Made by a program: the position numbers and the translations under genes. Below the pieces are notes generated by a model that saw only the letters and a program-made list of their open reading frames with translations, had not been told where the DNA came from and did not search any database. From Opitutales bacterium (GTDB taxonomy: Bacteria; Verrucomicrobiota; Verrucomicrobiia; Opitutales; PNEW01), in contig CBDCNV010000002.1 in assembly GCA_965219535.1 (NCBI GenBank), forward strand, positions 1,170,001 to 1,202,000: a stretch of DNA of 32,000 nt, read 5' to 3'. This document shows, in pieces, positions 5,328 to 30,006 of the stretch (the first letter of the stretch is position 1; the number at the start of each line of letters is the position of its first letter).

Positions 5328-5357
5328 GGTTCAATGGTTGATGGTTCAAGGTTCAGG
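5328..5357. repeat. GGTTCA word stutter (ggttcaatggttgatggttcaaggttcagg), G-orientation arm
   Basis: Read directly. It is the opposite orientation of the array at 5503..5551 in the same spacer. Confidence 0.8.
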
Positions 5358-5502
5358 AGTTAGGAGGACGATAGATAGAAGTGAACAGATAGTGGGAGAG
5401 GGGTGTCGGGTGTCGGGATAGAAGTGAACCCTTCGATTTCCTCAGGTCAGGCAGTGAACAGTGGATGGTTGAAATGAATGATGAATAATTTATAATTCTT
5501 AG

Positions 5503-5551
5503 CTGAACCCTGAACCCTGAACCCTGAACCCTGAACCCTGAACCCTGAACC
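5503..5551. repeat. Perfect tandem heptamer array (CTGAACC)x7
   Basis: Units start at 5503, 5510, 5517, 5524, 5531, 5538 and 5545. The complement is (GGGTTCA)n. Confidence 0.97.
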
Positions 5552-5583
5552 CTGTACCGAGAGCGTAGCTCGACACTTCCACC
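5552..5583 (-). repeat. GGCTAYG-core motif copy (reverse complement ggtggaagtgtcgagctacgctctcggtacag)
   Basis: Near-identical to 5599..5630, 6407..6441 and 21332..21366. Confidence 0.9.
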
Positions 5584-5598
5584 TACAACCCTTGAACC

Positions 5599-5630
5599 GT
5601 GTACCGAGGCGTAGCCCGACATCTTCCACC
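5599..5630 (-). repeat. GGCTAYG-core motif copy (reverse complement ggtggaagatgtcgggctacgcctcggtacac)
   Basis: Second tandem copy, embedded between TGAACC words. Confidence 0.9.
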
Positions 5631-5728
5631 ACTGAACCCGGAACCATTTTAAGGAACATTTCGCGTTTGATATTATTAAATCATCTGTCTAAGTTCAGCG
5701 AAAGTTTTAGACGAAGATCATTTTTATA

Positions 5729-6397
5729 ATGACAGCATTTCAACTCAATAAACCGACACATATTTTCATCGTAGTCTCACTGGTTTTCATGGGAATTTGT
5801 AGACTGGCTATTGCAGAGAATAAAAGGACGACTGAAGCTGAGGCATTTTTATCAGGTATCTTGGATGAAACCCTAAAGATATTAAAAGATGAAGATTTAT
5901 CAGGGGAGGATAAACGGACTTTACTTGCAGATAATATAAACGCGAACCTCGACTTGGCGTACATGTCTTCAAGGGCACTTGGTCCAAGTAAGGAGGGTTT
6001 TACCAAGGAACAGTTTGCTGAATTCTCACATGAATTTTCGCGTCATCTGACTCATTTTTATTTAAGAAGGATGGCGACCTTCAAGGGAGACAAGATTGAA
6101 ATTACTGGTGTGGATTTCAACGAGAAGAGTGGGGTAGTAAAATTGCGAACCTCTGGAGGAGTCCGACACACCATGTTTCAATCCCGTCGATCATCACATA
6201 TCGCTAATGTGGATTACCACCTACGAAAGAAAAACGTTGAATGGCGAATTGTCGCAATCACCATAGATGGTGTTAACGTCAGCCGAAATTTCCGCAAACA
6301 ATTCAAAGCACTGCTGGATAAAGAGAACCCCGATGCATTAATTGAAAAATTAAGAATGATGAATGCAGAAAACGAAGAGCGGAAGCTGTTTGAATAG
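5729..6397 (+). CDS. MlaC/Ttg2D-like periplasmic lipid-binding protein (orphan, no mlaFEDB neighbours)
   Basis: The 222-aa ORF has an N-terminal hydrophobic signal. Its C-terminal part, VDYHLRKKNVEWRIVAITIDGVNVSRNFRKQFKALLDKENPDALIEKL, matches the PF05494 signature (W-k-i-x-D-v-x-i-e-G-V-S-l...yr-x-qF). Confidence 0.7.
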   Translation: MTAFQLNKPTHIFIVVSLVFMGICRLAIAENKRTTEAEAFLSGILDETLKILKDEDLSGEDKRTLLADNINANLDLAYMSSRALGPSKEGFTKEQFAEFSHEFSRHLTHFYLRRMATFKGDKIEITGVDFNEKSGVVKLRTSGGVRHTMFQSRRSSHIANVDYHLRKKNVEWRIVAITIDGVNVSRNFRKQFKALLDKENPDALIEKLRMMNAENEERKLFE

Positions 6398-6406
6398 AGG
6401 GTTCAG

Positions 6407-6441
6407 GGTGGAAGATGTCGGGCTACGCTCTCGGTACAGGG
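6407..6441 (+). repeat. GGCTAYG-core motif copy (ggtggaagatgtcgggctacgctctcggtacaggg)
   Basis: Lies 10 nt after the MlaC-like stop codon. It is inverted relative to the copies at 5552..5630 on the other side of the gene. Confidence 0.92.
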
Positions 6442-6548
6442 AAATTATTATATAAAAATCCATCCTTCCAGTCATCCAACATTCCAATTTTTACTGTTCA
6501 CCGTTTACAGTTTACTTCTTTCCTGAACCCTGACACCCTCTCTCCCCC

Positions 6549-7196: not shown

Positions 7197-7263
7197 CGTG
7201 GAGTGACCCCCAAAAATCGTATCATTTACAGAGAGAGGTTATCGGGATAAACAGATAACCTCA

Positions 7264-7557
7264 ATGAAAAGAAAAAGATACACAACAGAACAGATTATAA
7301 CAATATTGCGGCAAGCCGATACCGGTAAAACGGTACAGGAAATCTGCCGTGGAAACAACCTGAGCGAACAGACTTTCTATCGCTGGCGTAAAAAATATGG
7401 CAATTTAGAACTTGCCGATGCGAAGCGATTTAAAGAGCTGGAAAAAGAATTCACGAGCGCAAGCGAGAAGGCCTGACATACCGAGCTGAAGAAGCTGCTC
7501 GCAGATCAAATGCTCAAGAATCAGGTAATGGAGGAAACGCTGTCAAAAAAATGGTGA
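7264..7557 (+). pseudogene. IS3 orfA (HTH transposase subunit) interrupted by an in-frame TGA at 7474..7476
   Basis: The N-terminus is MKRKRYTTEQIITILRQADTGKTVQEICRGNNLSEQTFYRWRKKYG... After the TGA the same frame continues HTELKKLLADQMLKNQVMEETLSKKW*, the leucine-zipper tail expected for orfA. Confidence 0.8.
7545..7551 (+). promoter_or_regulatory. Programmed -1 ribosomal frameshift heptamer A_AAA_AAA linking orfA to orfB
   Basis: Seven A residues sit in the X_XXY_YYZ register of orfA (codons TCA AAA AAA TGG TGA). A -1 slip reads on as ...LSKKMVSPKQKKRVV into orfB. This is the standard IS3 arrangement. Confidence 0.8.
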
Positions 7558-8474
7558 GCCCAAAGCAGAAGAAACGAGTAGTAAAAGCTGCGGCTGAGAA
7601 AGGGTTGTGCTCGTTGCGGAGGGCTTGTGCTTATCTCAGCCTGAGTTGGTCAACGTTCAGTTACCGGCCCAAACAGGCCAGTGAGAAAGCTCAGCGGTTG
7701 GTCGAGCGGATTGTGAGCTTGTCCTGGAAACATCCCCGCTACGGTTACCGGCGCATCCGTGCCTTGCTGGTAAAGGAAGGCTGGACAACAAGCAGGAAGT
7801 TTGTCCAGGCGGTACGACGTTCAGAAGGGCTGCAGGTAAAGCCCCCGAAAAAGGGCAGACACCGTCAAGGAGTCTCTACGGGGTCACCTACTAAAGCAAA
7901 GGGTCGCAATCACGTTTGGTCCTGGGACTTTGTCCATGATCGTACAGACAACGGCGGTCCATTAAAGATGATGACTCTAATCGATGAATATACGCGTAAA
8001 TGCCTGGATATCCGGGTCGCTCGTCAACTCACCTCAACCGATGTCCTCTCTGTGCTTAGCGAGGCCATTGAAGAGGAGGGACCTCCCAGCTATATCCGTA
8101 GTGACAACGGCAGTGAGTTCATTGCTCATCAAGTGCAGCAGTGGTTGTCCGGTAATAACATAAAGGCGATCTATATCGATCCGGGCAGTCCCTGGCAAAA
8201 CGGTTTCATCGAGTCGTTTCACAACCGCTTACGCGATGAGTGTTTGAACCGTGAAGTGTTGCTCAGCGTGGCTGAAGCGCAAGTGGTAATCGAACAATGG
8301 CGTCAGACCTATAACCATGAACATCCCCACAGTCGTTTAGGCTTCAAAAGCCCACAAGAGTTTGTCAGATTCCTTTCCGATCTTGGCCGCGTTCGGGCTA
8401 CGCCCTCACTTCGCCAAGATCTCTCATATACATCAATCCTAAAACCATTAACACCCGGTAACTCTCTCACTTAA
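7551..8474 (+). CDS. IS3 orfB, DDE (rve) transposase catalytic domain
   Basis: Motifs seen are WSWDFVHD...LIDEYTRKCL, IRSDNGSEFIA, and PGSPWQNGFIESFHNRLRDECLN...YNHEHPHSRLGFKSPQEF. Confidence 0.92.
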   Translation: MVSPKQKKRVVKAAAEKGLCSLRRACAYLSLSWSTFSYRPKQASEKAQRLVERIVSLSWKHPRYGYRRIRALLVKEGWTTSRKFVQAVRRSEGLQVKPPKKGRHRQGVSTGSPTKAKGRNHVWSWDFVHDRTDNGGPLKMMTLIDEYTRKCLDIRVARQLTSTDVLSVLSEAIEEEGPPSYIRSDNGSEFIAHQVQQWLSGNNIKAIYIDPGSPWQNGFIESFHNRLRDECLNREVLLSVAEAQVVIEQWRQTYNHEHPHSRLGFKSPQEFVRFLSDLGRVRATPSLRQDLSYTSILKPLTPGNSLT

Positions 8475-8687: not shown

Positions 8688-8711
8688 ATCTAATGATGTT
8701 CGATGTTAGAT

Positions 8712-8735
8712 GTTTTAAAACGACATCGCATGTCG
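8712..8735 (-). terminator. Putative intrinsic terminator of the four-helix-bundle gene
   Basis: On the minus strand the sequence is CGACAT-gcg-ATGTCG (6-bp stem) followed by TTTTAAAAC, about 27 nt after the stop at 8762. Confidence 0.5.
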
Positions 8736-8761: not shown

Positions 8762-9115
8762 TTATGCATCATCTAGTGTTTGGGACATTTTAACAAATAT
8801 GCTCACTATCTGATTAGCTTCATCGAGTACTGATTGTACAATGAAATTATCCCTAAAGCCTTTCTTTTTGTTAATTACTCGCAAACATACATGGCTCTCA
8901 CGAGCTTCTTTGAGAACTACTTTGATTTTATGCTTAAAATCTTTTCTTGATTCCGCTCCTTGTGCTTCCGCGTAGTTCAATGCCATAGAAGAAGAAGATC
9001 TTATCAGTTGTCCACCAAGATGCTTACCAGCTGGTGAACTGGGCAATTTTTCAGCCAAATCTATAGCTGAAACGGTAAAATCAATAAGCTTTTGTTCGAG
9101 TTTATTATTATCCAT
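8762..9115 (-). CDS. Four-helix-bundle protein (23S rRNA intervening-sequence protein family, TIGR02436/PF05635-like)
   Basis: The 117-aa ORF contains LGGQLIRSSSSMALNYAEAQGAESRKDFKHKIKVVLKEARESHVCLRVI, matching the family signature Q-l-x-R-s-x-x-S-i-x-x-N-x-a-E-g...kdf...a-x-x-S-x-x-E. Confidence 0.85.
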   Translation of the reverse strand: MDNNKLEQKLIDFTVSAIDLAEKLPSSPAGKHLGGQLIRSSSSMALNYAEAQGAESRKDFKHKIKVVLKEARESHVCLRVINKKKGFRDNFIVQSVLDEANQIVSIFVKMSQTLDDA

Positions 9116-9230
9116 TTATATACGACTTTTATTCGAAGCTACTGCCTATAATATCAAAAACGTGCCATCCGGTTTTCAGGATGTTTAAATTTTATCATAT
9201 ATTGTATATCGTAATTTGGACAACGTCCTT

Positions 9231-9340
9231 AATGATGTAAAACGAATGATGTCAGATGTCCGATGTCAGATGTTTGATGTTTGAGGTGTATGAACAACAT
9301 CCTACATCGCACATCTCACATCAAAGATCGCACATCGAAC
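9231..9340. repeat. Imperfect long palindrome made of a GATGT-word array (9231..9288) and an ACATC-word array (9298..9340)
   Basis: The left arm is aatgatgtaaaacgaatgatgtcagatgtccgatgtcagatgtttgatgtttgaggtg. The right arm is acatcctacatcgcacatctcacatcaaagatcgcacatcgaac. More GATGT words lie at 8695..8714 on the other side of the 4HB gene. Confidence 0.85.
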
Positions 9341-9379
9341 CCCCGACCCCTGAACCCTGAACCCCGAACCCTGAACCCT
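9341..9379. repeat. Degenerate TGAACCC-type array (ccccgacccctgaaccctgaaccccgaaccctgaaccct)
   Basis: Read directly. It contains six C3-4 tracts. Confidence 0.9.
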
Positions 9380-9380
9380 A

Positions 9381-9410
9381 CCTGTCGGCCATAGTCTTGG
9401 TGACGGCTAG
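9381..9410 (-). repeat. GGCTAYG-core relative (cctgtcggccatagtcttggtgacggctag)
   Basis: It aligns with 31409..31440 (cctgtccgtcatagccttggcgacggctgatc) and with the reverse complement of 14300..14326. Confidence 0.7.
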
Positions 9411-9494
9411 TGGCAATTCTTCTTTTTTAAGTTTGAATGGGAAATGGGTTTTTCTCATTTTAAAATCATTGGCATTAAATAATTATAAGTAGAT

Positions 9495-10805: not shown

Positions 10806-11276
10806 ATGCGTAAAACTAAGCTATTGTTCGGTACATTAATTGTTGTTGCGATCATTTTCTCAAACGGTGTTTTTTTAATTAATTTATTTCAACAGCCCCT
10901 CACCGATAAAAATAGTACAAGCTCCCCCCCACCTGGAGAAAACAAAGTGTTGATCGTTAACACAAGTACCTCACCAGTGATGGAACAAGCAGAACCAAGG
11001 GTTGATGAAACTACCGGTTTTATAATCGATGCAGGTTTCGAAGAAGTCACGGCGAACTGCATGGGATGTCATTCTCCTCTCCTCGTTACACAAAATCGGG
11101 CTACGCGAGATGGATGGTTAAGTACCATCCGGTGGATGCAGGAAACGCAGAATTTTTGGGACCTGGGTGATAATGAAACTATTATCCTGGATTACCTGGC
11201 CAGAAATTATTCACCTCCCGAGGGTATCGGCAGAAGGGCAAACTTGAAAAATATCCAGTGGGCAGCACTTGAATAG
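10806..11276 (+). CDS. Membrane-anchored monoheme c-type cytochrome (SorB-like electron acceptor)
   Basis: It has an N-terminal TM helix (LLFGTLIVVAIIFSNGVFLINLF) and a single CxxCH motif (ANCMGCHS). It lies 10 nt downstream of the SorA-like gene. Confidence 0.7.
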   Translation: MRKTKLLFGTLIVVAIIFSNGVFLINLFQQPLTDKNSTSSPPPGENKVLIVNTSTSPVMEQAEPRVDETTGFIIDAGFEEVTANCMGCHSPLLVTQNRATRDGWLSTIRWMQETQNFWDLGDNETIILDYLARNYSPPEGIGRRANLKNIQWAALE

Positions 11277-11327
11277 AGTCAAAAAATTGAGGATAATTAA
11301 GTTATAGATGCAGATTGGGAAAAGAAA

Positions 11328-11348
11328 AAACCGCGGATGGACGCGGAT
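11328..11348. repeat. Left copy of a perfect 21-nt inverted repeat (aaaccgcggatggacgcggat)
   Basis: This is the exact reverse complement of 14236..14256. Confidence 0.95.
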
Positions 11349-11381
11349 ATACACGGATAAAATATAATGAGAAAGTTTAGG

Positions 11382-11464
11382 AATTTGGAACTCAGGAAAT
11401 CAGGAAAAGAGTAGAGAATATTACAAAGTTTAATATGATTGAACCGCAAAGACGCTGAGGTCGC
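11382..11464 (+). repeat. ~85-nt direct repeat, copy 1 (aatttggaact..caggaaat..agaatattacaa..aatatgattgaaccgcaaag..gctgag.tcgc)
   Basis: It aligns with 14085..14172, with small word-sized indels. Confidence 0.85.
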
Positions 11465-11473
11465 AGAGAATAG

Positions 11474-11602
11474 GATTTAGAATTGAAGAATTGCGGTGCT
11501 TAATCGCAATGTAATCCCACCCGCGTCTGCGGGAGGGATTGACAAAGCTCAGGTAATCCTGAGCTATTGAGATTAAGCACCGCAATTCTCAAATTCTAAA
11601 TC
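11474..11602. other. 129-nt structured palindromic element: ~32-bp outer stem enclosing two internal hairpins
   Basis: The outer arms are gatttagaattgaagaattgcggtgcttaatc (11474..11505) and gattaagcaccgcaattctcaaattctaaatc (11571..11602). The inner hairpins are aatccc-ac-ccgc-gtct-gcgg-ga-gggatt and gctcagg-taat-cctgagc. Confidence 0.8.
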
Positions 11603-11626
11603 AACATCCGCGCTTATCCGCGTAAT

Positions 11627-11662
11627 TGGAAGATGTCGTCCCGCAGCTGCGGGACTCGGTAG
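11627..11662 (+). repeat. TGGAAGATGTCG-hairpin-TCGGTAG motif (tggaagatgtcgtcccgcagctgcgggactcggtag)
   Basis: The same motif occurs at 15363..15398 and 28893..28928. The hairpin is GTCCCGC-AGCT-GCGGGAC. Confidence 0.92.
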
Positions 11663-11800
11663 CCGCAGTCGGCTGATAGCCTCCCTCGCAATGACAATTG
11701 AGACAATGACGAAGACGGTGATTCATTTGATCAGCCCTGTAAGGGCGATACAATCTTAGCCCATTGCGTCAGCAATGGGTAATAGAGGCGCTCAATTCCC

Positions 11801-11867
11801 AAAGCCCCAGCGGGGCGACACAAGTACAGTTGGTAGATTTGTTGTGTCGCTCCGCTGGGGCTTTTTT
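11801..11867 (+). terminator. Terminator-like long hairpin (22-bp stem, 1 mismatch) followed by T6
   Basis: The arms are aaagccccagcggggcgacacaa (11801..11823) and ttgtgtcgctccgctggggcttt (11842..11864), followed by a T run extending to 11867. It lies ~525 nt downstream of the nearest + strand stop codon, so what it would terminate is unclear. Confidence 0.45.
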
Positions 11868-12005
11868 ATTAAACGATTAATTCTCCCACAGCTTACGCTG
11901 TGGGCTATGGTTGCTACACCCCTCTGGGGTGGAAAGCTTTGACCAAAACCCATGAACTCTGAACCCCGCCCACCCTGAGTGTAGTCGATGGGAACCCCGA
12001 ACCTA

Positions 12006-12053
12006 TTGACTTTTTGACATTTAACTTTCGACTTTTGACCTTCGACTTTCGAC
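12006..12053. repeat. CTTT(T/C)GAC word array (ttgactttttgacatttaactttcgacttttgaccttcgactttcgac)
   Basis: Read directly. It belongs to the same word family as 14195..14221, 18389..18408 and 20222..20253. Confidence 0.9.
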
Positions 12054-12142
12054 AATTCTCTTAAACCCATTTCCTTTTTAACCTATCATGCCACGCCATA
12101 GCTCGATAGAGCGACAGCGGGTGACCTTTTGACAAAAAAACC

Positions 12143-12961
12143 ATGAATCTAGAAAACATGCAGGAAGAGCGCCCGGAATGGATTAACTACCATGAAGGGA
12201 ATTTTGAAATCAAAGATTCGAAGATTATATTGCGGTCTTCCCAGTCAGGGCCTCCGGCTATCGCTAAACTTGCTTATGCGGGATGTTCTACGGGTAATAA
12301 AATTTTCAATCCGGGACTGAAGGGGACTAATAGTATTGAGGCCACCCTCTTAGACTATGGCGCTGAAGGCAATTATCTTGTCAAAGAGGGGAAGATTATG
12401 GAGTTCGAAGATCCCAGTGGTAAGAGCTTTCGCTCAGTTGCCGGTAACTATCAAAGGGGGTGGGGGATTTCGATTTCCAACTACCATTACCTTGTTACTT
12501 CTAAAAAAGAAACCGATCGCGGGGTGCAGGTTCATTTTGACTGGTGGGAAAATCTTGGGCTGACTTTTTGGATGGTTCGTGATGTCTTACCTGAAGACAG
12601 AGAGAAATATCCCAGTTGGGTGCCCCATAGACAAACCCCGGAGGAGGTATTTGAAATGGGAAAGAAGGGTCCCGTTATTACCCCAGTTGTGAACAAGCTT
12701 GGCATGCGCTGGTTCCCTCCCACCGATAAGATGAAGACACCTGTCGGGCATCGCTACGGACTCGTTTTAACGGACGATGGTAATACGGTCTACTGGACAC
12801 TGGACGGAAACGAGATGGATCGGGCGGATATTACTGGTTTTTTCAGTTCTTATCCGGATGCCGTTAAGGATGGTGCATTTGCAACGATGGGGGGGAATGG
12901 TTCTTATGAACGAAATCACTGGATCGCCGGGGATGTAAGCATTCGTCGTAGTACTTCTTAA
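12143..12961 (+). CDS. Hypothetical protein (272 aa; possibly a beta-sandwich/jelly-roll fold, unassigned)
   Basis: A long ORF with coding-like composition and no signal peptide. I do not recognise a family motif. Confidence 0.6.
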   Translation: MNLENMQEERPEWINYHEGNFEIKDSKIILRSSQSGPPAIAKLAYAGCSTGNKIFNPGLKGTNSIEATLLDYGAEGNYLVKEGKIMEFEDPSGKSFRSVAGNYQRGWGISISNYHYLVTSKKETDRGVQVHFDWWENLGLTFWMVRDVLPEDREKYPSWVPHRQTPEEVFEMGKKGPVITPVVNKLGMRWFPPTDKMKTPVGHRYGLVLTDDGNTVYWTLDGNEMDRADITGFFSSYPDAVKDGAFATMGGNGSYERNHWIAGDVSIRRSTS

Positions 12962-12986
12962 AAATGTTTGAAAGTAAATAGTCGTT

Positions 12987-20253: not shown

Positions 20254-20261
20254 TAGATTCA

Positions 20262-21899: not shown

Positions 21900-21980
21900 C
21901 CCTCTTATCCAACACTCGACCGTTCATCCACGACTCACTGATTTTTATTTACTTTTCATATCTAAATATCGTCATTTTTT

Positions 21981-22017
21981 CTGAACCCTGAACCCTGAAC
22001 CCCGAACTCCGAACCCT
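21981..22017. repeat. C-orientation array ctgaaccctgaaccctgaaccccgaactccgaaccct
   Basis: It is inverted relative to 21429..21458, and the arms include the adjacent A/T runs (gggttcagggttcaggaaaa versus ttttttctgaaccctgaaccc). Confidence 0.92.
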
Positions 22018-22023
22018 CTCTCA

Positions 22024-24603
22024 CTACTCCTTCCTCGCGAGCATGGAATAAATCGTCAGTCCCTCGAGAGACTTTTTTCGCTCGGGTATAAATAGGCTGG
22101 ACAGATAGCCAACGACAAAACAGGTGATGAATCCGATAGATGAGTAGAGGAGAAAGTGTATCGGTGTTTCAAATTTCACAAAATAAAGGACTATCGCACT
22201 GGTAATCGCACCGACTAAGGCACCAATACCATTCGCACGTCGTGTAAAAATACCCAGGGCAAATAGTCCGCCCAATCCGCTGATAAACAATCCGGCGATA
22301 GCGGTAGCAAACAACGCGGCATTATGAATATCAAAAGTAACCAGAGAGAGGGCGATAACGGTGACAATGAGACCGATAACTAAGGTAACCGAGCGAGCCA
22401 GATACAAATAGAGACGATCGGGTTTCTTAGGTTTGAAGCGTCGGTAAAAATCCGTGACAAAGACTGTGGCCACCGAGTTCATCCCGCTGTCAAGACTCGA
22501 CATCGCGGCGGAAAAGATGGCTGCAATGACAAAACCGGCAAGCCCGAAGGGAAGATTTTGTGCGATGAAGAGAGGAAAAATCGCGTCATTCTGCATTCCC
22601 ATGCTGACTGTGGCTGGGTGCGTTTTATAATAGGCGTAGAGGGCGGAACCCATTCCATAAAATAAAAAACCGATGGGAATACCAATTATAGCATTTAACC
22701 ATATCCCTTTCGCGGCCGTTTTTTCGTCCTTCGTCGTAAGATACCTTTGGATCGTGGTTTGCTCGGTGGATGGTCCCAAAAAGGCACCAAAAGCACTACT
22801 AATTAATAACACCCATAGGACGGGCGCAGTAAAGTCCCACTCCAGATACAACATGCGGTATTTATCATCAGCCAAACCTATATCGATTATTCCCTTATAA
22901 CCATTATCGATATGAAAAGGAATAACGATGAGGGCAATAATGATACCGATAAAAAATACAATGACCTGTAAAACATCCGACCATACGACCGCTTCGATAC
23001 CACCCAACACGGTGTAAAAGGTGCTGATTAATCCCATAAAGAGAATACATATGTAGATATTAATCCCCGCGATGGTGGAGAGAACAACTGCCGGCAGATA
23101 AAGAATAATACTGATCCTGATTAATTGATAAATTATGAATTGTACACTCCCGTATAAGCGAACAGGCAGATTAAATCGTTTCTCCAGGTATTCATAAGCG
23201 GTAGTAACATTAAGCCTTCGGTAAAACGGCAGGAAAAAATAGATAACAATTATAGGAGCAAAGATTAACCCAATCCTTCCGGGAAATAGGAACCAGTCTG
23301 TGGCGTAAGCCAATGCGGGATAGGAAATATAAGTTAGGGCGCTAAGTCCGGTTCCCAGAATACTGAGCCCTGCCGCCCACCAGGGGATGCGATGACCGGC
23401 GAGAAAATAATCTTTTGTCCCTTTCTCCCGCCTGGAAAAATAAAAACCCATATAGACAAGCGCCACCATATACAGTAGGAGAAAAGAATAATTTATGATT
23501 CCAAACGATGCATTCGCTCCCGCATCATGAATCATTATTTGAACCTTAGGGGTCATTATCCCGGGTTCTGTCTCTCCACCGGTAATGGCGATCCCTCCTT
23601 CCCATAACACCGCTTCAGAAGACACTACCCCTAATGGTAATTCACCTTTTACCAACCAGGTATCAGTGACCGTGTGATAGACGAGAAGATCGCGTGAATA
23701 GCTGGGATGATCCTTACTTGAATTCACATCCTCGTGCTTCCAGGTATTGCCTCCAAAGATAAGAATATGTGATTGTCCATAGGCAACTCCAGGGGCCCCG
23801 GTTACGGGGTGGGGGGCGTCGGCGATAGGTTCCCAATTTTCATAACGAAGGGAATAGCGGTAGCCGTCGGTCAATTGCCTGCTTTGAATCTCACCATTTT
23901 CATTCTGAATCCTTTCTTCACCGCCAATGATGTATACAAATCTGCCATTACCAATATTCTGGCCTATAACGATGGCCCTTCTCCTCGCCGGGCCCTCCCA
24001 GGGGACTAACGATTTCCAACCCGCATCTAAATTGTTCAGATCAAGTGACCAAAAATTCTTCGTCAGACTCATTTTGTCTCGCTCCAACTGGCCACCAACC
24101 ACGTATACGACACCATTAATTTCAGCGGCGCCGATTAAAGAAAGTGACTGTGGAAGAGGCGGCAGGGACACTTGATTAATTATCCGAGAAGATGCATTCC
24201 ACGTTAACTGGATCACCTCGTTCTGATTGCCCTCAGCATTGCTCCCCCCAATTAAGATCAAACTATCATCGCTAGTTACGGAAGCACCTAAAGCGATCGG
24301 TTCATTCAGTTTATAGCCCGTTAACCACTTTTTCTCTCTATTATTTGGGAGTATGTAGATGTCGTCATACCAAGTTCTGTTTCGGATCATCAATTCCATT
24401 CCATGCGGGAAATTCGAACCCCCAGCGACAATGAGAGCGCCATTGCTGACCCCGGTAAATGCTCCACCCAGACCGAGCTTGTTAGGCAATTCGGGAAGTT
24501 CACTCCAACTAATGGCTTCTTGCTGCGGCGCTGCGCTTTCACTGTGCCCTGCTATGCAAATCAAGGCAGCAAAGCATAACAAGATAACACAGGGATGTTT
24601 CAT
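22024..24603 (-). CDS. Fusion protein: N-terminal secreted Kelch/NanM-like (sialic-acid-mutarotase-type) beta-propeller plus C-terminal sodium:solute symporter (SSS, PF00474-like)
   Basis: The preferred start is ATG 24603, giving MKHPCVILLCFAALICIAGHSES (signal peptide). The track start at 24639 is a GTG inside the GGTTCAG repeat. The propeller shows GGAFTGVSNGALIVAGGSNFP and repeated ...GG blades over about 340 aa. About 13 TM helices follow, with the SSS signature TVLGGIEAVVWSDVLQ. Confidence 0.85.
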   Translation of the reverse strand: MKHPCVILLCFAALICIAGHSESAAPQQEAISWSELPELPNKLGLGGAFTGVSNGALIVAGGSNFPHGMELMIRNRTWYDDIYILPNNREKKWLTGYKLNEPIALGASVTSDDSLILIGGSNAEGNQNEVIQLTWNASSRIINQVSLPPLPQSLSLIGAAEINGVVYVVGGQLERDKMSLTKNFWSLDLNNLDAGWKSLVPWEGPARRRAIVIGQNIGNGRFVYIIGGEERIQNENGEIQSRQLTDGYRYSLRYENWEPIADAPHPVTGAPGVAYGQSHILIFGGNTWKHEDVNSSKDHPSYSRDLLVYHTVTDTWLVKGELPLGVVSSEAVLWEGGIAITGGETEPGIMTPKVQIMIHDAGANASFGIINYSFLLLYMVALVYMGFYFSRREKGTKDYFLAGHRIPWWAAGLSILGTGLSALTYISYPALAYATDWFLFPGRIGLIFAPIIVIYFFLPFYRRLNVTTAYEYLEKRFNLPVRLYGSVQFIIYQLIRISIILYLPAVVLSTIAGINIYICILFMGLISTFYTVLGGIEAVVWSDVLQVIVFFIGIIIALIVIPFHIDNGYKGIIDIGLADDKYRMLYLEWDFTAPVLWVLLISSAFGAFLGPSTEQTTIQRYLTTKDEKTAAKGIWLNAIIGIPIGFLFYGMGSALYAYYKTHPATVSMGMQNDAIFPLFIAQNLPFGLAGFVIAAIFSAAMSSLDSGMNSVATVFVTDFYRRFKPKKPDRLYLYLARSVTLVIGLIVTVIALSLVTFDIHNAALFATAIAGLFISGLGGLFALGIFTRRANGIGALVGAITSAIVLYFVKFETPIHFLLYSSIGFITCFVVGYLSSLFIPERKKSLEGLTIYSMLARKE

Positions 24604-24617
24604 CGAACAGAGAGAGA

Positions 24618-24647
24618 GGGTTCTGGGTTCAGGGTTCACGGTTCAGG
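24618..24647. repeat. G-orientation array gggttctgggttcagggttcacggttcagg
   Basis: It lies immediately upstream of the symporter start codon and is inverted relative to 21981..22017 at the gene's 3' end. Confidence 0.9.
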
Positions 24648-24710
24648 ATGCAAGATAATCTAAGTAATTCGCGGCATGTGGATTTTTCTGCACAATCTGC
24701 TACATTTTCT

Positions 24711-24763
24711 CACTGTTCACTGTTACACTGTTCACTGTTCACTGTTCACTGTTCACTGTTCAC
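24711..24763. repeat. (CACTGTT)x7 tandem array (one unit carries an extra A)
   Basis: Read directly. The last units supply the final codons and the TGA stop (24753..24755) of the upstream symporter paralog (GGT GAA CAG TGA on the minus strand). Confidence 0.95.
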
Positions 24764-27344
24764 CCCTGGGTAGGACCGTGTAAATCGTCAACCCTTTAAG
24801 GGATTTTTTCCGCTCGGGTATAATCAGACTGGCAAAATACCCGGCGATAAGACAGACGGTGAATCCAATCGTGGGGTAGAGGAAAAAATTTATTGGCGTG
24901 TGGTACTTTACATAATACAGGGCTATTGCACTGATGATAGCACCCATCAAAGCTCCCATACCATTTGCTCTTCGCGTAAAAATACCGAGGGCAAATAACC
25001 CGCCCAATCCACCGATAAAAAGTCCTAAGACAGAGCTGGCAAAGATAACGGCAGACTGAATATTAAAGGTAACCAGGAGAAGAGCGACAGCCGTGGCAAA
25101 AAGGCCAATGAGCAAGGTAATAGAACGCGCGAGATTTAAATAAAAACGTTCAGATTTATCCGCTTTGAACCGACGATAAAAATCGGTGACAAAGACGGTA
25201 GCGATAGAGTTCATCCCGCTGTCCAGACTTGACATCGCCGCAGAAAAGATGGCCGCAATGACAAAACCAGCAAGACCGAAGGGAAGGTTTTGCGCGATGA
25301 AGAGAGGAAAAATCGCGTCGTTCCGCATCCCCAAGCTGACACTGCTCGGGTGTGTTTTGTAAAAAGCGTAAAGGGCAGATCCCATGACAAGGACGATTGC
25401 CCCCAGCGGAAGACCGGCAATTACGTTTAACCATAACCCTTTTGCCGCAGCTTTTTCATCCTTTGTCGTAAGAAACCTTTGAATTCTGCTTTGGTCGGAG
25501 GATAAGACAATGAAGGTTCCCATCGCGCCGCTGATTAATAATACCCATAATGTTGGTTCGGTAATGTCCCAGTCCAGGTACCACATGCGATATTTATCAT
25601 CGGCGAGACCAATGTCGATCATACCCTTAATACCATTATCGACATTAAAGAAGACGACGATCAGGGCAATAATGAGTCCGGCTATGAAGATGAACACCTG
25701 GATAACATCCGACCATATAACCGCTTCAATGCCGCCCAGTACTGTGTAAAAAGTGCTTATCAAACCTAACGACAGTATGCAGACATAAATATTTATCCCC
25801 GTGATCGTGGAGAGAACAATGGCGGGTAGATACATGATCAGACTGATCCGCAATGATTGAAATAAAATAAATTGTGCACTCCCGAATAAGCGAACGGCCA
25901 GGTTAAAACGTTTCTCCAGGTATTCATAGGCGGTAGTAATATTCAACCTTCGATAAAATGGCAGGTAGAAATAAATAATCATAATCGGTGCGAAAAAGAA
26001 CCCGATCCGAACCGGAAAATAAAACCAGTCCGTAGAAAAAGTTAAGGCGGGATGGGCAATATAAGTTACGGCGCTAAGCCCTGTTCCCAGTAAACTGAGC
26101 CCTGCCGCCCACCAGGGAACACGGCGCCCCGCAAGAAAGTAATCATCCGTTCCTTTTTCTCTTTTGGAAAAGTAAAAGCCAAGGTAAACTATGCCCACGA
26201 GATAGAGAGTGAGAAAAGTGTAATTTATAATTCCAAACGACGCGCCGGCTCCTGAATCGTGAATCATTAATTGCACCTTAGGGGTCATTGTCCCGGGTTT
26301 AGTCTCACCACCGGTTATGACGATGCCTTCTCCCCAGGATACCGCTTCTGCAGACACTACACCTAACGGTATCTCAGCTTGAATTATCCAGGTATCGGTG
26401 ATCGTATGATAGACGAGAAGATCGTGCGAATAAAGAGGATGATCATCTCCCTTTGTTGAGAGATTCATCCCCGTGTTATTATCGGTCTTACCACCAAAAA
26501 TGAGAACATGGGATTGTCCATAGGCAATACCAGGGGCAGCTGTTAGGGGGTGCGGGGCGTCGGTAATTCGTTCCCACTTCTCGTTTGTCAGTGAGTAGCG
26601 GTAACCATCAGTTAATTGCCTGGTTTGAATTTCACCCTTTTCATCTTCGATTTGCGCTTCGCCTCCAATGATGTATAAATTTTTTCTATAACCGGTATTT
26701 TGACCCACGACGACAGCCCTATTTCGAACCGGTCCCTCCCAGGGTTTTAACGATTCCCATCCCGCTTCCAGATTATTCAGGTTGAGTGACCAGAATATAT
26801 TTATTAATTCCGATCTTTCGCCGACAATCTGAACGCCCGCAACATATACGATCTCATCCATTTCAGTGGCGCCTACGAATGAGAGAGTTTGTGGAAGGGG
26901 AGGCAAGGACACTTGATTAATCTTTCTAGAAGCTGCCTCCCACGTTATTTGCGTCACTTGCTTGTGATTACCCCCTGCATTACTCCCGCCAATCAGGATC
27001 AAACTCTGGCTACTAATTACGGATGCGCCGTAAGCAAGCGGCTCTTTCAAGCTAAATCCCGTTTGCCAACTTTCTTGCTCAGTGTCGGACAGAACATAAA
27101 TGTCCGCATACCAGAATCTACTTCCGGCCTTCCCCTCAGGGGTTTGAGGAAAATTCGAACCGCCGGCGACGATGAGCGCGCCATTGCTGACTCCGGCGAA
27201 AGCCCCGCTTAGACCTGGAGAATTGGGGATTACTGGCAGTTCTTCCCAGGTGATTTTCTCGGGTCTTTGTGTTTCACCTTCGGCGCGCCCGATAAAGCAT
27301 AGGAAGGTGGTTAAACATAAAGCGAGAGCAGAGGAGAGATTCAT
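24753..27344 (-). CDS. Paralogous Kelch/NanM-like beta-propeller plus SSS symporter fusion
   Basis: It has the signal peptide MNLSSALALCLTTFLCFIGRAEG and the same architecture as its neighbour. By eye the two are collinear and highly similar throughout, for example GAFAGVSNGALIVAGGSNFP, TVLGGIEAVIWSDVIQ and AIFSAAMSSLDSGMNS. Confidence 0.88.
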   Translation of the reverse strand: MNLSSALALCLTTFLCFIGRAEGETQRPEKITWEELPVIPNSPGLSGAFAGVSNGALIVAGGSNFPQTPEGKAGSRFWYADIYVLSDTEQESWQTGFSLKEPLAYGASVISSQSLILIGGSNAGGNHKQVTQITWEAASRKINQVSLPPLPQTLSFVGATEMDEIVYVAGVQIVGERSELINIFWSLNLNNLEAGWESLKPWEGPVRNRAVVVGQNTGYRKNLYIIGGEAQIEDEKGEIQTRQLTDGYRYSLTNEKWERITDAPHPLTAAPGIAYGQSHVLIFGGKTDNNTGMNLSTKGDDHPLYSHDLLVYHTITDTWIIQAEIPLGVVSAEAVSWGEGIVITGGETKPGTMTPKVQLMIHDSGAGASFGIINYTFLTLYLVGIVYLGFYFSKREKGTDDYFLAGRRVPWWAAGLSLLGTGLSAVTYIAHPALTFSTDWFYFPVRIGFFFAPIMIIYFYLPFYRRLNITTAYEYLEKRFNLAVRLFGSAQFILFQSLRISLIMYLPAIVLSTITGINIYVCILSLGLISTFYTVLGGIEAVIWSDVIQVFIFIAGLIIALIVVFFNVDNGIKGMIDIGLADDKYRMWYLDWDITEPTLWVLLISGAMGTFIVLSSDQSRIQRFLTTKDEKAAAKGLWLNVIAGLPLGAIVLVMGSALYAFYKTHPSSVSLGMRNDAIFPLFIAQNLPFGLAGFVIAAIFSAAMSSLDSGMNSIATVFVTDFYRRFKADKSERFYLNLARSITLLIGLFATAVALLLVTFNIQSAVIFASSVLGLFIGGLGGLFALGIFTRRANGMGALMGAIISAIALYYVKYHTPINFFLYPTIGFTVCLIAGYFASLIIPERKKSLKGLTIYTVLPRGEQ

Positions 27345-27501: not shown

Positions 27502-28761
27502 GTGTGGATGAGTGACGAATTGGACAATCCTTCGAAAAAGAATAGAGGGTTTACCTATCTCACCCCTGAACAGGCAAATTCTCTTTCGAGTATGGAGGGA
27601 GACCTGGAATGGGGACATTACACTGACACAGAATCTCAGATTTCTGAAACGGATAAAGCTGAAACAATATCATATAAATATTTTTCAAGCTTAGCGGATA
27701 TAATTCCGGGAATTGTCCTGGCCTTTATCCTTGCGATAATTGGTAAATTTTTATCCGGATGGTTGGGAACCACGCTTTTCAGTTTCGAGAAAAGTCCATT
27801 CAGCCCGATAATGTTTATCATTATACTGGGCATCGCATTCAGGAATTTTATCGGCGTCCCCAATGAATATGTGTCGGGTTTAAAATTTTCCGTACGGTAT
27901 ATCCTGAGAATTGGGATTGCGCTCCTGGGCTTGCGGTTAAGTATCTCCGCTGTCGGGCAAATCGGTCTGGTCAGCCTTCCGGTAGTTGTCATTTGTATTG
28001 CTGGCGCATTGCTTATCGTTTCAGCACTTAAGCGTTTTATAAACATACCATCACGCTTGGGCACGCTTATTGCCGTGGGGACGAGCATCTGCGGGGTAAG
28101 TGCTGTTGTCGCCACCTCGCAAAGCATTAAAGCAGAAGATGATGAAGTCAGCTACGCTGTTGCCTGTGTGACTATTTATGGATTATGCGGTCTCATTTTC
28201 TATCCCTTCTTTGCCCATTGGCTTTTTCATGGCGATGCGCAAATGGTTGGTATCTTCCTGGGTACCGCCATACATGATACCTCTCAAGTCGCGGGGGCCG
28301 GGTTAATTTATGCGCAGCACTATCTCGTGCCCGAGACCCTGGATGCGGCAACGGTAACGAAACTGCTGCGGAATCTATTCATGATTATTGTCATTCCAAT
28401 AATGGCCCTGCTTTATCAACGTTCAATTAAAACTAACAGTTCTTCACATCTGGCACCGCGCTGGTTTCACATGGTCCCTATGTTTGTTGTCGTCTTTGTC
28501 TGTTTAGCTGTTGTCCGTTCTTTGGGTGATATCGGGGAAAACCCTTTTGTCGTTTTCGATCCTGAAACATGGGATAATTTTTTAATCAGTGCACAAACGG
28601 TGTCGACCTGGTGTCTGACCTTGGCCATGGCTTCACTTGGGCTGAGCACCAGCATGGCTAAAATAAAAAATCTCGGATTCGCTCCTCTCTTCGTAGGTTT
28701 TATCGCCGCCGCCGCCGTCGGTCTGCTCAGCTACCTCAGTATTCGCTTTATTAGTTTTTAA
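27502..28761 (+). CDS. YeiH/UPF0324 family (PF03601-like) putative sulfate-exporter-type membrane protein with a ~60-aa hydrophilic N-terminal extension
   Basis: Motifs seen are LIAVGTSICGVSAVVATSQSIKAEDDEVSYAVACVTIYG and FLGTAIHDTSQVAGAG, with about 10 TM helices. The listed start is GTG 27502; ATG 27508 is equally possible. Confidence 0.8.
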   Translation: MWMSDELDNPSKKNRGFTYLTPEQANSLSSMEGDLEWGHYTDTESQISETDKAETISYKYFSSLADIIPGIVLAFILAIIGKFLSGWLGTTLFSFEKSPFSPIMFIIILGIAFRNFIGVPNEYVSGLKFSVRYILRIGIALLGLRLSISAVGQIGLVSLPVVVICIAGALLIVSALKRFINIPSRLGTLIAVGTSICGVSAVVATSQSIKAEDDEVSYAVACVTIYGLCGLIFYPFFAHWLFHGDAQMVGIFLGTAIHDTSQVAGAGLIYAQHYLVPETLDAATVTKLLRNLFMIIVIPIMALLYQRSIKTNSSSHLAPRWFHMVPMFVVVFVCLAVVRSLGDIGENPFVVFDPETWDNFLISAQTVSTWCLTLAMASLGLSTSMAKIKNLGFAPLFVGFIAAAAVGLLSYLSIRFISF

Positions 28762-28773
28762 GGCGTGGGGTGA

Positions 28774-28805
28774 GTCAAAAGGTCAAAAAGTCAAAAGGTC
28801 AAAAG
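28774..28805. repeat. (GTCAAAAG)x4 array
   Basis: It starts 13 nt after the YeiH-like TAA stop. Confidence 0.95.
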
Positions 28806-28842
28806 GTTAAGGGTTCCCTTCGACTCAGCTCAGGACCTCTAG

Positions 28843-28976
28843 TCTTCCGGCCTCCCGCTCTTCTAGCCATCCGAAACTCTGGCCTTCCGGTTTGGAAGAT
28901 GTCGTTCCGCGACTGCGGAACTCGAAACTGGGTGTCTGGCTTTCAGGCCCTCCGGAATTCCGGCTCTCCGGCCTTC
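28843..28976. repeat. CCTTCCGG/CTCCGG word stutters flanking an embedded TGGAAGATGTCG motif
   Basis: The stutters are tcttccggcctcccgctc...ggccttccgg (28843..28890) and ctggctttcaggccctccggaattccggctctccggcc (28936..28976). Confidence 0.85.
28893..28928 (+). repeat. TGGAAGATGTCG-hairpin motif variant (tggaagatgtcgttccgcgactgcggaactcgaaac)
   Basis: The hairpin is GTTCCGC-GACT-GCGGAAC. It starts exactly 100 nt upstream of the DMT gene ATG (28993). Confidence 0.88.
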
Positions 28977-28992
28977 TATACCATCTTTTTCG

Positions 28993-29880
28993 ATGAAAAA
29001 AACGATACCGGTTGATCAGCCGAGTGCAAAGGTCATAGCGATAGCGCTTTTTCTCGGATTTCTCTGGGGTGGGAATTCCGTAGCGCTAAAAACTTCCCTC
29101 ATCGATATGCCGCCATTTATGGTTGGCGGGCTTCGTTTTTCATTGGCAATCCTGGCAATTATTCTTTGGGCGGTAATTTACCGGATTCCTATAGTGCCGC
29201 CAAAATCAGAGCGAATCCCGCTTCTTATCATGTCGTTGTTATTCACTACACAGATTGGGCTTATAAATATTGGAACGCACTACACCTACGCTTCACACAC
29301 CACTATTCTCATCAACATAAATCCATTATTTACTGCTGTGCTGGCTCATTTCTTTTTTATAGGTGATGAATTAAATCTGAAAAAGTGTTTAGGCTTAGTG
29401 CTTGCATTTATCGGGGTAATTATTGTTTTCCGCGCTAATTTTTCTTTGGGGAGTGATTTTTTAATTGGTGACCTTTACGTCTTAGCGAGTGCGTTTATTC
29501 TCGGTATATGTAACATCTACACAAAACTTCTCATTCAACATATAAATATCTATCGACTGCTCATTTGGCAAATGGCCATAAGTCTTCCCATATTTTTTGG
29601 TCTCAGTTTTTGCTTCGAAGGATTGGATAGTTATCATTTTACTCCCTATGCTTTACTGGCAATCGTTTATCAGGGGCTTGTCGTGGGAGGTTTTTGCTTC
29701 GTCGGCTGGACACTTATCTTAAAACAACACAGCCCGACAAAACTAACTGCGTTTTTTTTCGCGACTCCGCTCTTTGGTGTGGCATTGAGCTATCTCATAT
29801 TAAATGAACCAATTACGATCAATCTTGCCTTTGGCGCAATCTTCGTTGCATACGGGATTTACCTCGTTAATCGAGCTTGA
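28993..29880 (+). CDS. DMT-superfamily transporter (two EamA domains, 10 TM)
   Basis: The 295-aa ORF is hydrophobic throughout and has an internally duplicated 5+5 TM layout. Examples are FLWGGNSVALK and YQGLVVGGFCFVGW. Confidence 0.8.
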   Translation: MKKTIPVDQPSAKVIAIALFLGFLWGGNSVALKTSLIDMPPFMVGGLRFSLAILAIILWAVIYRIPIVPPKSERIPLLIMSLLFTTQIGLINIGTHYTYASHTTILININPLFTAVLAHFFFIGDELNLKKCLGLVLAFIGVIIVFRANFSLGSDFLIGDLYVLASAFILGICNIYTKLLIQHINIYRLLIWQMAISLPIFFGLSFCFEGLDSYHFTPYALLAIVYQGLVVGGFCFVGWTLILKQHSPTKLTAFFFATPLFGVALSYLILNEPITINLAFGAIFVAYGIYLVNRA

Positions 29881-29957
29881 TCTTAGTCAAAAAGTGAATT
29901 GCGATTATGAGTATAAGCGTGAATGCGAGGATGCGGGTTTAAACATTCTTTTACTCT

Positions 29958-30006
29958 CTGGCCATCCGGTTCTCAGGCACTCCAGCCTTCCGGCCTTCCG
30001 GCTTTC
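29958..30006. repeat. CCTTCCGG word array (ctggccatccggttctcaggcactccagccttccggccttccggctttc)
   Basis: It has the same words and the same orientation as 28843..28976 on the other side of the DMT gene. Confidence 0.85.

Follow-up and report, generated by a model that had tools for sequence, protein, structure and literature searches.

Tandem arrays of 7- and 8-nt words occupy intergenic DNA in a 32,000-nt stretch of the genome of an Opitutales bacterium (Verrucomicrobiota; assembly GCA_965219535.1, contig CBDCNV010000002.1, positions 1,170,001 to 1,202,000; the whole stretch is hereafter the window). These arrays are organised as dyads in which a G-rich arm (G-arm) comes first and a C-rich arm (C-arm) second, on either strand, and this chirality is their general rule, rather than the pairing into spacer-sized hairpins that a first-pass annotation of the same DNA had proposed. 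The arrays are also hypermutable, with slippage-type gain and loss of units even between assemblies that are >99% identical. Furthermore, every examined locus of the S23p/IVP genes (PF05635, TIGR02436), in at least four phyla, shows the same layout, namely, G-arm, open reading frame (ORF) and complementary C-arm. The dyads are probably selfish, slippage-prone elements of the known heptamer simple sequence repeat (SSR) kind, and those with complementary arms would act like the stems of 23S rRNA intervening sequences (IVSs).

Arrays in the window and their chirality

Arrays of period 7 or 8 were called with TRF, using 30 dinucleotide shuffles as a control. The window gave 26 such rows (19 of period 7 and seven of period 8), whereas the shuffles averaged 1.4 and never exceeded 4, and 731 of the 761 array bases (96%) are intergenic. 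Self-identity peaks at lags 7, 8, 14 and 21 in intergenic DNA and at period 3 only in coding DNA. The median array has ~4 units according to TRF, whose score threshold skews the apparent unit number. Array families that differ in word can adjoin in phase, for example at 9296-9379, and the genes flanked by arrays are metabolic and transport genes of all kinds.

A direct check of positions showed that the words reported in the first-pass annotation sit where it placed them, and its central observation of non-random, oriented arrays at gene boundaries was borne out by the comparison with shuffles, by placement and by chirality. Its statement that spacers consist largely of arrays was too strong, since TRF-detectable arrays make up only 12.5% of intergenic bases and occur in ~12 of 17 spacers. 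Some of the individual items that it listed are single or very degenerate units (e.g., 5381-5388, 29886-29895 and 11952-12003), and one of its six tandem families, ATCCGCG, is a dispersed, terminator-like 5-bp GC hairpin with a T run and forms no tandem array. G-arms had been described as lying near stop codons and C-arms just before the next gene; as measured here, G-arms start 0-12 nt past the stops at 6397, 18246, 20107, 28761 and 29880, and C-arms end 8-15 nt ahead of the gene boundaries at 6549, 18424 and 20262. Inverted arms do flank the MlaC-like gene (41 nt, 95%) and the symporter gene (36 nt, 89%).

The arrays are also oriented with respect to these boundaries. The array nearest to a start codon is C-rich in the sense strand in a ratio of 14:1, and that nearest to a stop codon is G-rich in a ratio of 17:9 (Fisher p = 2.7e-4), with the exceptions at stops mostly near IVP genes. 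In terms of composition, G-C on the + strand is +4.6 in the first 60 nt of a spacer and -3.1 in the last 60 nt (n = 33, p = 7e-5), and relatives that lack arrays have no such spacer skew (n = 44, p = 0.26). Thus, a G-first, C-second order on either strand makes the G-rich strand the sense strand just after stops, and the C-rich strand the sense strand just before starts.

The same order appears when genes are left out of consideration. In a scan of metagenomes, (GGGTTCA)4 was present on at least 120 contigs (L023-L142; GC 42-69%), from which 46 telomere-like contigs were put aside. On the remaining 74, unrelated contigs, neighbouring arrays of opposite skew are ordered G then C in 27 cases and C then G in 7 (p = 8e-4). 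The 46 contigs put aside also bear arrays of TTTAGGG type and have the look of telomeric DNA from eukaryotes (algae), with TTCAGGG variants. Several unrelated heptamer families occur together on many of the other contigs, as on L131, with 11 families in 3.1 kb.

The arrays of the window, some of which hold elements resembling repetitive extragenic palindromes (REPs), are as follows (L001 is a relative introduced in the next section).

5326-5357: G-arm of degenerate GGTTCA type, within the divergent spacer 5206-5728; 5503-5551 is its pairing partner (74-79%)
5503-5551: (CTGAACC)7 C-arm
6398-6439, + strand: G-arm AGGGTTCAGG directly past the MlaC stop, followed by a REP-like element at 6408-6439
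6490-6515 and 6522-6540: C-arms, ACTGTTC-type and CCTGAACCCTGA, respectively; they end 8 nt short of 6549, where a minus-strand gene has its stop
8695-8714: (GATGTTN)3 array, outer arm on the downstream side of the gene IVP-2
9231-9288: GATGTNN heptamer array, G-arm
9296-9379: C-arm of 12 units, one unbroken period-7 array that passes from ACATCNN to GAACCCT without loss of phase
11952-12053: degenerate TGAACCC units passing into a (TTTCGAC/TTTTGAC)n C-arm, upstream of the gene at 12143
14195-14222: (TTCGACT)4 array within 14083-14252, a segment inverted relative to L001
18247-18304: G-side arrays right after a stop, GGTCAAAAAGCCAAAAAGCC and then (GATTGCG)2.7
18389-18408: CCTTTTAGACCTTTTGAC C-arm, 15 nt ahead of the start at 18424
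20112-20144: (GTCAAAAG)4 G-arm, 4-5 nt past a stop
20221-20253: (CTTTTGAC)4 C-arm, 8 nt ahead of a start; pairs with 20113-20143 (31 nt, 94%, z -6.1)
21311-21458: composite G-side arm with GGTTCA units, a REP-like element at 21333-21364, (GGGTTCA)n, the module AAAATGCCGATAGTTAGA, (GTGAACA)3.6 and (GGGTTCA)4.4
21934-22025: composite C-side arm; 21987-22025 is 95% complementary to 21420-21458, and 21934-22001 is 84% complementary to 21358-21425
24617-24647: (GGGTTCN)4.4; the sense strand is C-rich for the minus-strand gene that starts 13 nt away (24603)
24710-24763: (CACTGTT)7.6; the sense strand is G-rich for the minus-strand gene with its stop at 24753
28774-28807: (GTCAAAAG)4 G-arm, 12 nt past a stop; 100% reverse complement of 20221-20254
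28843-28976: C-side region of degenerate octamers of CCTTCCGG type, with a REP-like element breaking it at 28892-28924; the G-arm is of a word family that is not complementary to it
29886-30006: one GTCAAAAAGT unit, followed by G-rich octamers of GAATGCG type and, at 29958-30006, by a CCTTCCGG array; arms not complementary

Recurrence and turnover of the arrays

Two syntenic relatives served for comparison, namely, L001, a chromosome of an Opitutales metagenome-assembled genome (MAG) that is ~91% identical to the window in genes, and L002, 'Verrucomicrobia bacterium Opi.OSU.00C', at ~77% identity. L001 has the same kind of arrays, with word families that overlap with those of the window, and no such arrays were found in the relatives L002, L004 and L005 (77% identity or less). 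The arrays recur in independent assemblies of essentially the same strain (L018, L021, L022 and the Logan contigs L019 and L020); they are therefore real, and we give almost no credence to an artefact of assembling or polishing long-read MAGs. The contig names of L018, L021 and L022 do mark low coverage ('5x', '11x') and these contigs differ from the window by homopolymer indels, but the same arrays are present in at least three independent assemblies and samples, Logan included, and arrays are also found in a related complete genome, in RefSeq Xanthomonas and cyanobacteria, and on the metagenome contigs described above.

Unit number changes over very short distances. The (CTGAACC) array at 5503-5551 has seven units in the window, two in L021 and ~13 in L022, although these assemblies are >99% identical; the (CACTGTT) array at 24710-24763 has another copy number in L018; and in L019 a CCTTCCGG spacer of different build stands beside a 99.9%-identical gene. 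This polymorphism supports the earlier suggestion that the arrays are by-products of slippage. At 91% identity, the orthologous spacers of the window and L001 have been rebuilt nearly in full; among them, the hairpin spacer of four GTCAAAAG and four CTTTTGAC units (20108-20261) has no counterpart arm in L001. Since orthologous spacers are not conserved, a conserved role as terminator or insulator, which had also been proposed, is disfavoured.

S23p/IVP genes inside dyads

Both S23p/IVP genes of the window lie inside dyads, between protein-coding genes.

8762-9115, - strand: IVP-2, S23p / four-helix-bundle gene (PF05635, TIGR02436), between GATGT/ACATC arms
21492-21899, - strand: IVP-1, S23p / four-helix-bundle gene (PF05635, TIGR02436), in the loop of a dyad

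The arms of IVP-1 are 95% complementary over 39 nt, with mirrored variant units, and a further pair matches over 68 nt at 84%. In the minimum free energy (MFE) fold, the sense RNA of this cassette is predicted to have a ~44-bp terminal stem around the whole ORF (z -5.9). The same spacer in L001 holds a different IVP gene (11162-11596), which is 33% identical and lies on the opposite strand, and whose arms are symmetric, with the same REP element at mirrored positions. A single REP variant can thus sit in both arms of one dyad, in L001 and again in L158; the variant in L158 is common to both arms and unlike that of the window, so that the arms evidently co-evolve.

Copies of IVP-1 at 79-93% identity are widespread. 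In Opitutales the cassette ends are (GGGTTCA)n ... (CCTGAACC)n with conserved sub-terminal sequences; the spacer that holds the cassette differs in L143, L144 and L147, and its orientation is opposite in L158. The cassette measures ~570 nt including arms (79-89% nucleotide identity) and lies between an esterase gene and a 156-aa gene in some Opitutales, and between M19 and symporter genes, in either orientation, in others (compared with 11277-12986 and 21285-22023 of the window); one genome has both locations (ERZ24794640 NODE_30). In two further contigs, L145 and L146 (ERZ6104481 and ERZ6104056), the esterase flank of one IVP locus is fused with the M19 flank of the other, and this esterase-IVP-M19 junction is either a real duplication or excision junction, made by recombination between cassette copies, or an assembly chimera.

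Beyond the window we examined 18 independent IVP loci, from other Opitutales, Kiritimatiellia, Acidobacteriota, Xanthomonas, six cyanobacteria and the contigs L100 and L120. All 18 are enclosed in dyads, with a G-rich 7-8-nt array upstream and a complementary C-rich array downstream (sites, window included: IVP-1, IVP-2, L001 11162-11596, L015/L016, L100, L120, L143-L150, L158 and L160-L171). Arm words vary by lineage, and include GGGTTCA, GATGTNN, GTGAACA, GGGAATC, GCAAGGAA, AGCAGGGG and TGACAGG. The Kiritimatiellia locus reads (GGGTTCA)3-AAA-ATG, and its stop TGA falls within CCTGAACCC. In Xanthomonas, the IVP gene stands between accB and accC, preceded by GGGAATC GGGAGTG GAGAATC GGGAATC and followed by CATTCCC CATTCCC GACTCCC TATTCCC, and its arms are built from the genus's own heptamer. 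All six of the cyanobacterial plasmid loci (Tolypothrix, Oscillatoria, two Nostoc, Leptolyngbya and Anabaena 90) are in dyads, for instance (AGCAGGGG)6 / (CCCCCTGC)8.5 and (TGACAGG)n / (CTGTCAC)4. A strict correspondence between IVP subfamily and arm word was rejected, because L100 has GGGTTCA arms and an IVP only ~33% identical to IVP-1.

The Acidobacteriota locus provides an empty site. There, (GCAAGGAA)n stands before the ORF and (TCCTTGCC)n after it, and 21 kb hold no other period-7/8 arrays. In eight relatives (88-96% identity) the operon spacer is empty, 21 nt long and free of arrays, so that the arms are present only together with the ORF. Counting the period-7/8 arrays of ten IVP loci from outside Opitutales, 21 in all, we found 17 at 400 nt or less from the ORF, where 17% would be expected (p = 2e-10), and two more of the 21 overlap the 3' end of the IVP ORF. 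A tblastn search with the L001 IVP against 72,556 plasmids gave matches that are nearly all cyanobacterial, mostly from Nostocales, the classic group for short tandemly repeated repetitive (STRR) heptamers; the same search with IVP-1 returned nothing at 1e-6. One of the plasmid loci, L171 (pANA02 of Anabaena sp. 90), has its IVP gene, with ~40 heptamer units upstream, between cas6 and cas4 of a type I-D CRISPR-Cas locus.

Folding of the spacers

Hairpins turned out to be the exception. We folded 15 spacers and compared their energies with those of shuffles, and only one to three of the 15 fold significantly better. Spacer 20108-20261 owes a strong predicted structure to its arrays, with a 31-bp stem (z -6.1 to -6.5), spacer 9116-9494 has a weak one (z about -2.5 to -2.8), and a predicted stem also spans the IVP gene at 21420-22025. 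Arms of one family are therefore able to form very long stems, as the first-pass annotation had it. In spacers such as 18247-18423, 24604-24752, 28762-28992 and 29881-30076, z is near 0, because the two arms come from non-complementary word families. The idea that a whole spacer folds into a long stem thus applies strongly to 20108-20261, weakly to 9116-9494 and across the IVP gene, but fails for most array spacers; it is not the general organising principle, and even the strongest hairpin has no equivalent in the relative at 91% identity.

Intrinsic termination was rejected as a role for the arrays: no T run stands behind the array stems, terminator-like sites in the window are not enriched over shuffles, and only the CCGCGGATGGACGCGG hairpins and 11849-11861 fit a terminator. 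A promoter reading of the arrays was rejected as well. The earlier proposal of RNase III processing stems draws indirect support from the parallel with 23S rRNA IVSs. As a separate observation, the convergent spacer 31332-31547, which has no arrays, folds far better than shuffles (z -4.05), and it carries a GTCGGCCATAGCCTTGGCGACGGC-like motif that is also present at 9385-9410 and in L001.

Comparison with described repeats

STRR heptamers are a feature of heterocystous cyanobacteria; they are said to have been described by Mazel and colleagues in 1990, and their words are CCCCAGT, TTGGTCA and CAACAGT. The arrays of the window resemble STRR and Nostoc heptamers in having several families per genome, in their dispersion through non-coding DNA, in variable copy number and in often standing beside starts. 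They are not STRRs in the strict sense, as the nearest genomes are Opitutales and the words differ from STRR1-3, and we know of no description of dyad chirality or 8-nt units for STRRs. A cyanobacterial origin of the window, to which STRR-like arrays and IVP genes might point, was rejected because its syntenic relatives belong to Opitutales. Small dispersed repeats, very small mobile elements that Elhai and colleagues reportedly found in 2008 inside tandem heptamer arrays of Nostoc, have a parallel in the REP-like elements in the present arrays; sequences and phylum differ. In Nostoc PCC 7120, contiguous heptamers occur near start codons (bioRxiv 10.1101/2022.06.06.494920).

The closest likeness is with the GGGAATC heptamers of Xanthomonas and the GGGGAYT heptamers of Nostoc PCC 7120, which are ~90% intergenic with four units as the mode (Rehm et al. 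2015, PMC4692102). These lie a mean of 28 nt from the upstream ORF; Xanthomonas has 70-75 arrays per genome as convergent inverted pairs; downstream of an ORF the coding strand is the G-rich one, and upstream of it the non-coding strand is; and length and sequence vary extensively among relatives, with no function identified (PMC4692102). The window arrays share the tandem 7-nt units, typically ~4 per array, the many loci, the non-coding bias, the location soon after the upstream ORF, the strand rule with its convergent inverted pairs, and the variation between relatives. The class was therefore already known, contrary to the first-pass annotation, which had found no described element class with this organisation. 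What does not carry over is a unit able to form a G-quadruplex, for which the GGGTTCA family alone qualifies in the window. At the level of the repeat, then, the new elements are the Verrucomicrobiota host lineage, the coexistence of at least five word families, the 8-nt units beside the 7-nt ones, and the predominance of families that do not form G-quadruplexes. The link to S23p goes unmentioned in the Xanthomonas and Nostoc paper (PMC4692102), and our literature search found no paper that ties heptamer arrays to S23p genes in general.

Further systems share some of these features. The TAACTGA direct repeats of Beggiatoaceae, cyanobacteria and Bacteroidetes (MacGregor 2015, PMC4679880) are likewise intergenic tandem heptamers, mostly a few nt upstream of starts and patchy across phyla, but they have a single word, are almost only direct repeats and form no dyads. 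In the IVS of Coxiella 23S rRNA, terminal inverted repeats pair into a 28-bp stem that is cut by RNase III and has an S23p ORF in its loop; two to three GACAGAT heptamers, variable among strains, stand a short way upstream of this ORF (Warrier et al. 2016, PMC4990558), and S23p-carrying IVSs of Coxiella and Leptospira are regarded as selfish and possibly mobile (PMC4990558). The IVP-1 cassette is similar in its internal PF05635 ORF and in terminal inverted repeats that, in the predicted fold, make a long enclosing stem; unlike those IVSs, the cassettes of the window lie between protein-coding genes and not in helix 25 or 45 of 23S rRNA, and their arms are themselves tandem arrays. Neither rRNA nor tRNA genes were found in the window, where an Rfam search gave only an unrelated match to Acido-Lenti-1 RNA.

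The first-pass annotation had also set the arrays apart from REPs and bacterial interspersed mosaic elements (BIMEs), from CRISPR arrays and from miniature inverted-repeat transposable elements (MITEs), and the comparison agrees with it for each of these. Tagged REPs, BIMEs or REPINs (REP doublets forming hairpins) are what the embedded 30-37-nt elements resemble, and GTAG-tagged REPs are abundant in Opitutus terrae (Di Nocera et al. 2013, PMC3733652); the arrays themselves differ, being head-to-tail 7-8-nt units without an internal palindrome. No RAYT gene is present in the window, where the sole transposase is of IS3 type. CRISPR was rejected because the units are 7-8 nt and contiguous, as against 24-48-nt repeats with unique spacers, and MITEs because the loops between arms are unique, with repeated internal modules limited to the 84-nt repeat at 11382/14085 and the IVP sub-terminal module. 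Phase-variation contingency loci were rejected too, given that the arrays are outside ORFs and beside metabolic and transport genes of all kinds.

Proposed selfish dyads and alternative explanations

In the explanation that we favour, the dyads would be IVS-like selfish passengers of non-coding DNA, tolerated only outside ORFs and only in the G-first order. Slippage-type gain and loss alter unit number, and both arms of a dyad co-evolve. By analogy with the terminal repeats of 23S rRNA IVSs, complementary arms would form a long RNA stem around whatever sits between them, and spacer-sized hairpins would then be a frequent by-product and not a conserved host device. The G-first order is probably tolerated because Rho would load onto a first arm that was C-rich and unpaired, with polarity as the outcome, and because leaders ahead of starts without Shine-Dalgarno sequences would have to stay G-poor.

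Several results weigh against this explanation. Many dyads have non-complementary arms and no excess of folding, so that stem formation cannot explain them, and the strand rule is weaker past stops (17:9) than ahead of starts. RNase III cleavage, avoidance of Rho and leader effects are all putative. An IVP ORF is lacking from most of the spacers that bear arrays in the window; no decayed IVP ORF or remnant was found in these ORF-less spacers, nor was the sub-terminal module of the IVP cassette found elsewhere in the window; and an IVP gene is present on only 2 of the 120 metagenome contigs with (GGGTTCA)4. It is for these reasons that we can only infer that ORF-less dyads belong to the same element class as IVP cassettes. 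Lastly, the junctions of the Acidobacteriota locus resemble replacement by recombination and not clean insertion or transposition.

That the arms are host-beneficial RNA structures, selected as bidirectional terminators, insulators or RNase III stems that delimit mRNAs, seems to us improbable, despite arms that abut both stops and starts, the 31-bp stem and the consistent chirality. A selected structure sits poorly with the loss of the best hairpin from the orthologous spacer of a 91%-identical genome, with copy numbers of 2, 7 or 13 in near-identical assemblies and with stems that have no T run in a window where terminator-like sites are not enriched; most array spacers fold like shuffles, their arms being different words, and relatives without arrays manage with short, plain spacers. 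Improbable to a similar degree is the view that the arrays are neutral slippage repeats with no link to any element and with orientation by chance only. Such repeats would account for the copy-number polymorphism and the fast turnover, and an excess of heptamer SSRs is widespread in bacteria, but chance orientation is at odds with the strong chirality, and the mirroring of variant units and REP insertions in two arms, the empty site without arrays where arrays come only together with the IVP ORF, and the clustering of arrays at IVP ORFs (p = 2e-10) all tie the arrays to an element.

The arms could instead be platforms for protein, in which a pentameric, positively charged S23p/IVP ring, related to Avd, would bind four to five consecutive units in RNA or single-stranded DNA and in which ORF-less arrays of the same word would be targets in trans. 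We deem this unlikely. All examined IVP ORFs adjoin arrays; the median of ~4 units in the window and the mode of 4 in Xanthomonas would suit such a ring, except that the TRF score threshold biases the apparent unit number; both S23p and Avd are pentameric, and Avd binds RNA. IVP-1 proteins of at least 76% identity always come with GGGTTCA arms, in two bacterial classes, and an ATGTC core is common to IVP-2 and its 49%-identical relative L120, yet L100 combines GGGTTCA arms with an IVP ~33% identical to IVP-1, and the S23p of Coxiella is apparently untranslated (PMC4990558). Much less credible are G-quadruplex or i-motif elements of the kind proposed for the G-rich heptamers of Xanthomonas and Nostoc: (GGGTTCA)n does fit the G3N4 rule and ~4 units are common, but five of the six families (GTCAAAAG, GTGAACA, GATGT, CCTTCCGG and CGCGGAT) have no G3 tracts and nevertheless show the same placement and chirality, and the inability of most families to form a G-quadruplex removes this explanation.

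Selfish dyads that are tolerated in one orientation therefore remain our preferred reading, and they invite a broader generalisation, which we offer tentatively, as possible rather than probable. The 7-8-nt repeats of Nostocales (STRR), of Xanthomonas (GGGAATC) and of this genome could be the arms of one widespread, undescribed class of IVS-like selfish cassettes, the coding members of which would carry a pentameric S23p able to recognise its own arms, each subunit taking one unit; once paired, the arms would undergo cleavage or insulation as RNA, like those of 23S rRNA IVSs, and ORF-less dyads would be non-autonomous members or trans targets. Heptamer repeats have been targets for cyanobacterial fingerprinting since 1990, and were catalogued in Xanthomonas in 2015, with their origin and function still unexplained, and S23p genes and the IVSs of 23S rRNA have been unexplained for about as long. 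One chirality rule now holds across unrelated genomes, and S23p genes of Verrucomicrobiota, Acidobacteriota, Gammaproteobacteria and Cyanobacteria lie within such dyads. Two long-standing questions thereby merge into a single hypothesis that is open to test, on processing by RNase III, on binding of the repeats by S23p and on mobility of the cassettes, in which the IVP layout, found in at least four phyla, hints at where heptamer repeats come from, and close relatives with and without arrays offer a natural comparison for finding the cause. If the S23p link were coincidental, the window would represent an ordinary new host lineage for a known type of repeat.

Dispersed elements and other features of the window

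A REP-like element of 30-37 nt, GGAAGATGTCG followed by a stem-loop and CTCGGTAG or CTCGGTAC, is present in six copies and a degenerate one, four of them inside GGGTTCA arrays. Members of this family have GGAAGANGTCG and a hairpin in six copies, two with a GTAG end, and the family consensus is GGAAGATGTCG, a variable hairpin and CTCGGTA(G/C). These and another dispersed hairpin are located as follows.

5553-5629, - strand: two REP-like hairpin elements, GGAAGATGTCG, stem-loop and CTCGGTAC, within a TGAACCC array (5553-5582, degenerate, and 5600-5629)
6408-6439 and 21333-21364: REP-like copies in array arms
11626-11662, + strand: REP-like element TTGGAAGATGTCG-TCCCGCAGCTGCGGGA-CTCGGTAG; also at 15362-15398 and 28892-28924
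11328-11348 and 14236-14256: dispersed, terminator-like CCGCGGATGGACGCGG hairpin repeat with a T run behind it; related copy at 11606-11622

An 84-nt dispersed repeat (86% identity), which contains GGAACTCAGGAAATCAGGAAA octamers and a conserved GAACCGCAAAGnnGCTGAGnTCGC motif, occurs at 11382-11464, at 14085-14167 and at ~7769-7898 of L001, and may be a MITE or a small RNA. The second copy falls in the 170-nt segment 14083-14252, which is inverted with respect to L001 3322-3490 (91% identity), where it is bounded by CGCGGAT / ATCCGCG inverted repeats. A 1.57-kb segment, 11420-12994, is absent from L001, and an IVP cassette takes its place in L144 and L147. It contains a REP-like element, a palindrome with 37-nt arms (11474-11602), a strong terminator-like hairpin (11801-11864) and a 272-aa ORF (12143-12961) with no family match. 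The Acido-Lenti-1 RNA match (42.3 bits, above the gathering score) is at 11733-11779 on the - strand, within the long spacer 11277-12142.

Shine-Dalgarno sequences are absent at start codons across the window. The IS3-family transposase gene (HTH and rve domains; 7207-8474) has a probable frameshift, and its region varies among the near-identical assemblies L021 and L022. The genes at 22024-24603 and 24753-27344 are tandem paralogues (~75% nucleotide identity), each a Kelch/NanM beta-propeller fused to a sodium:solute symporter.

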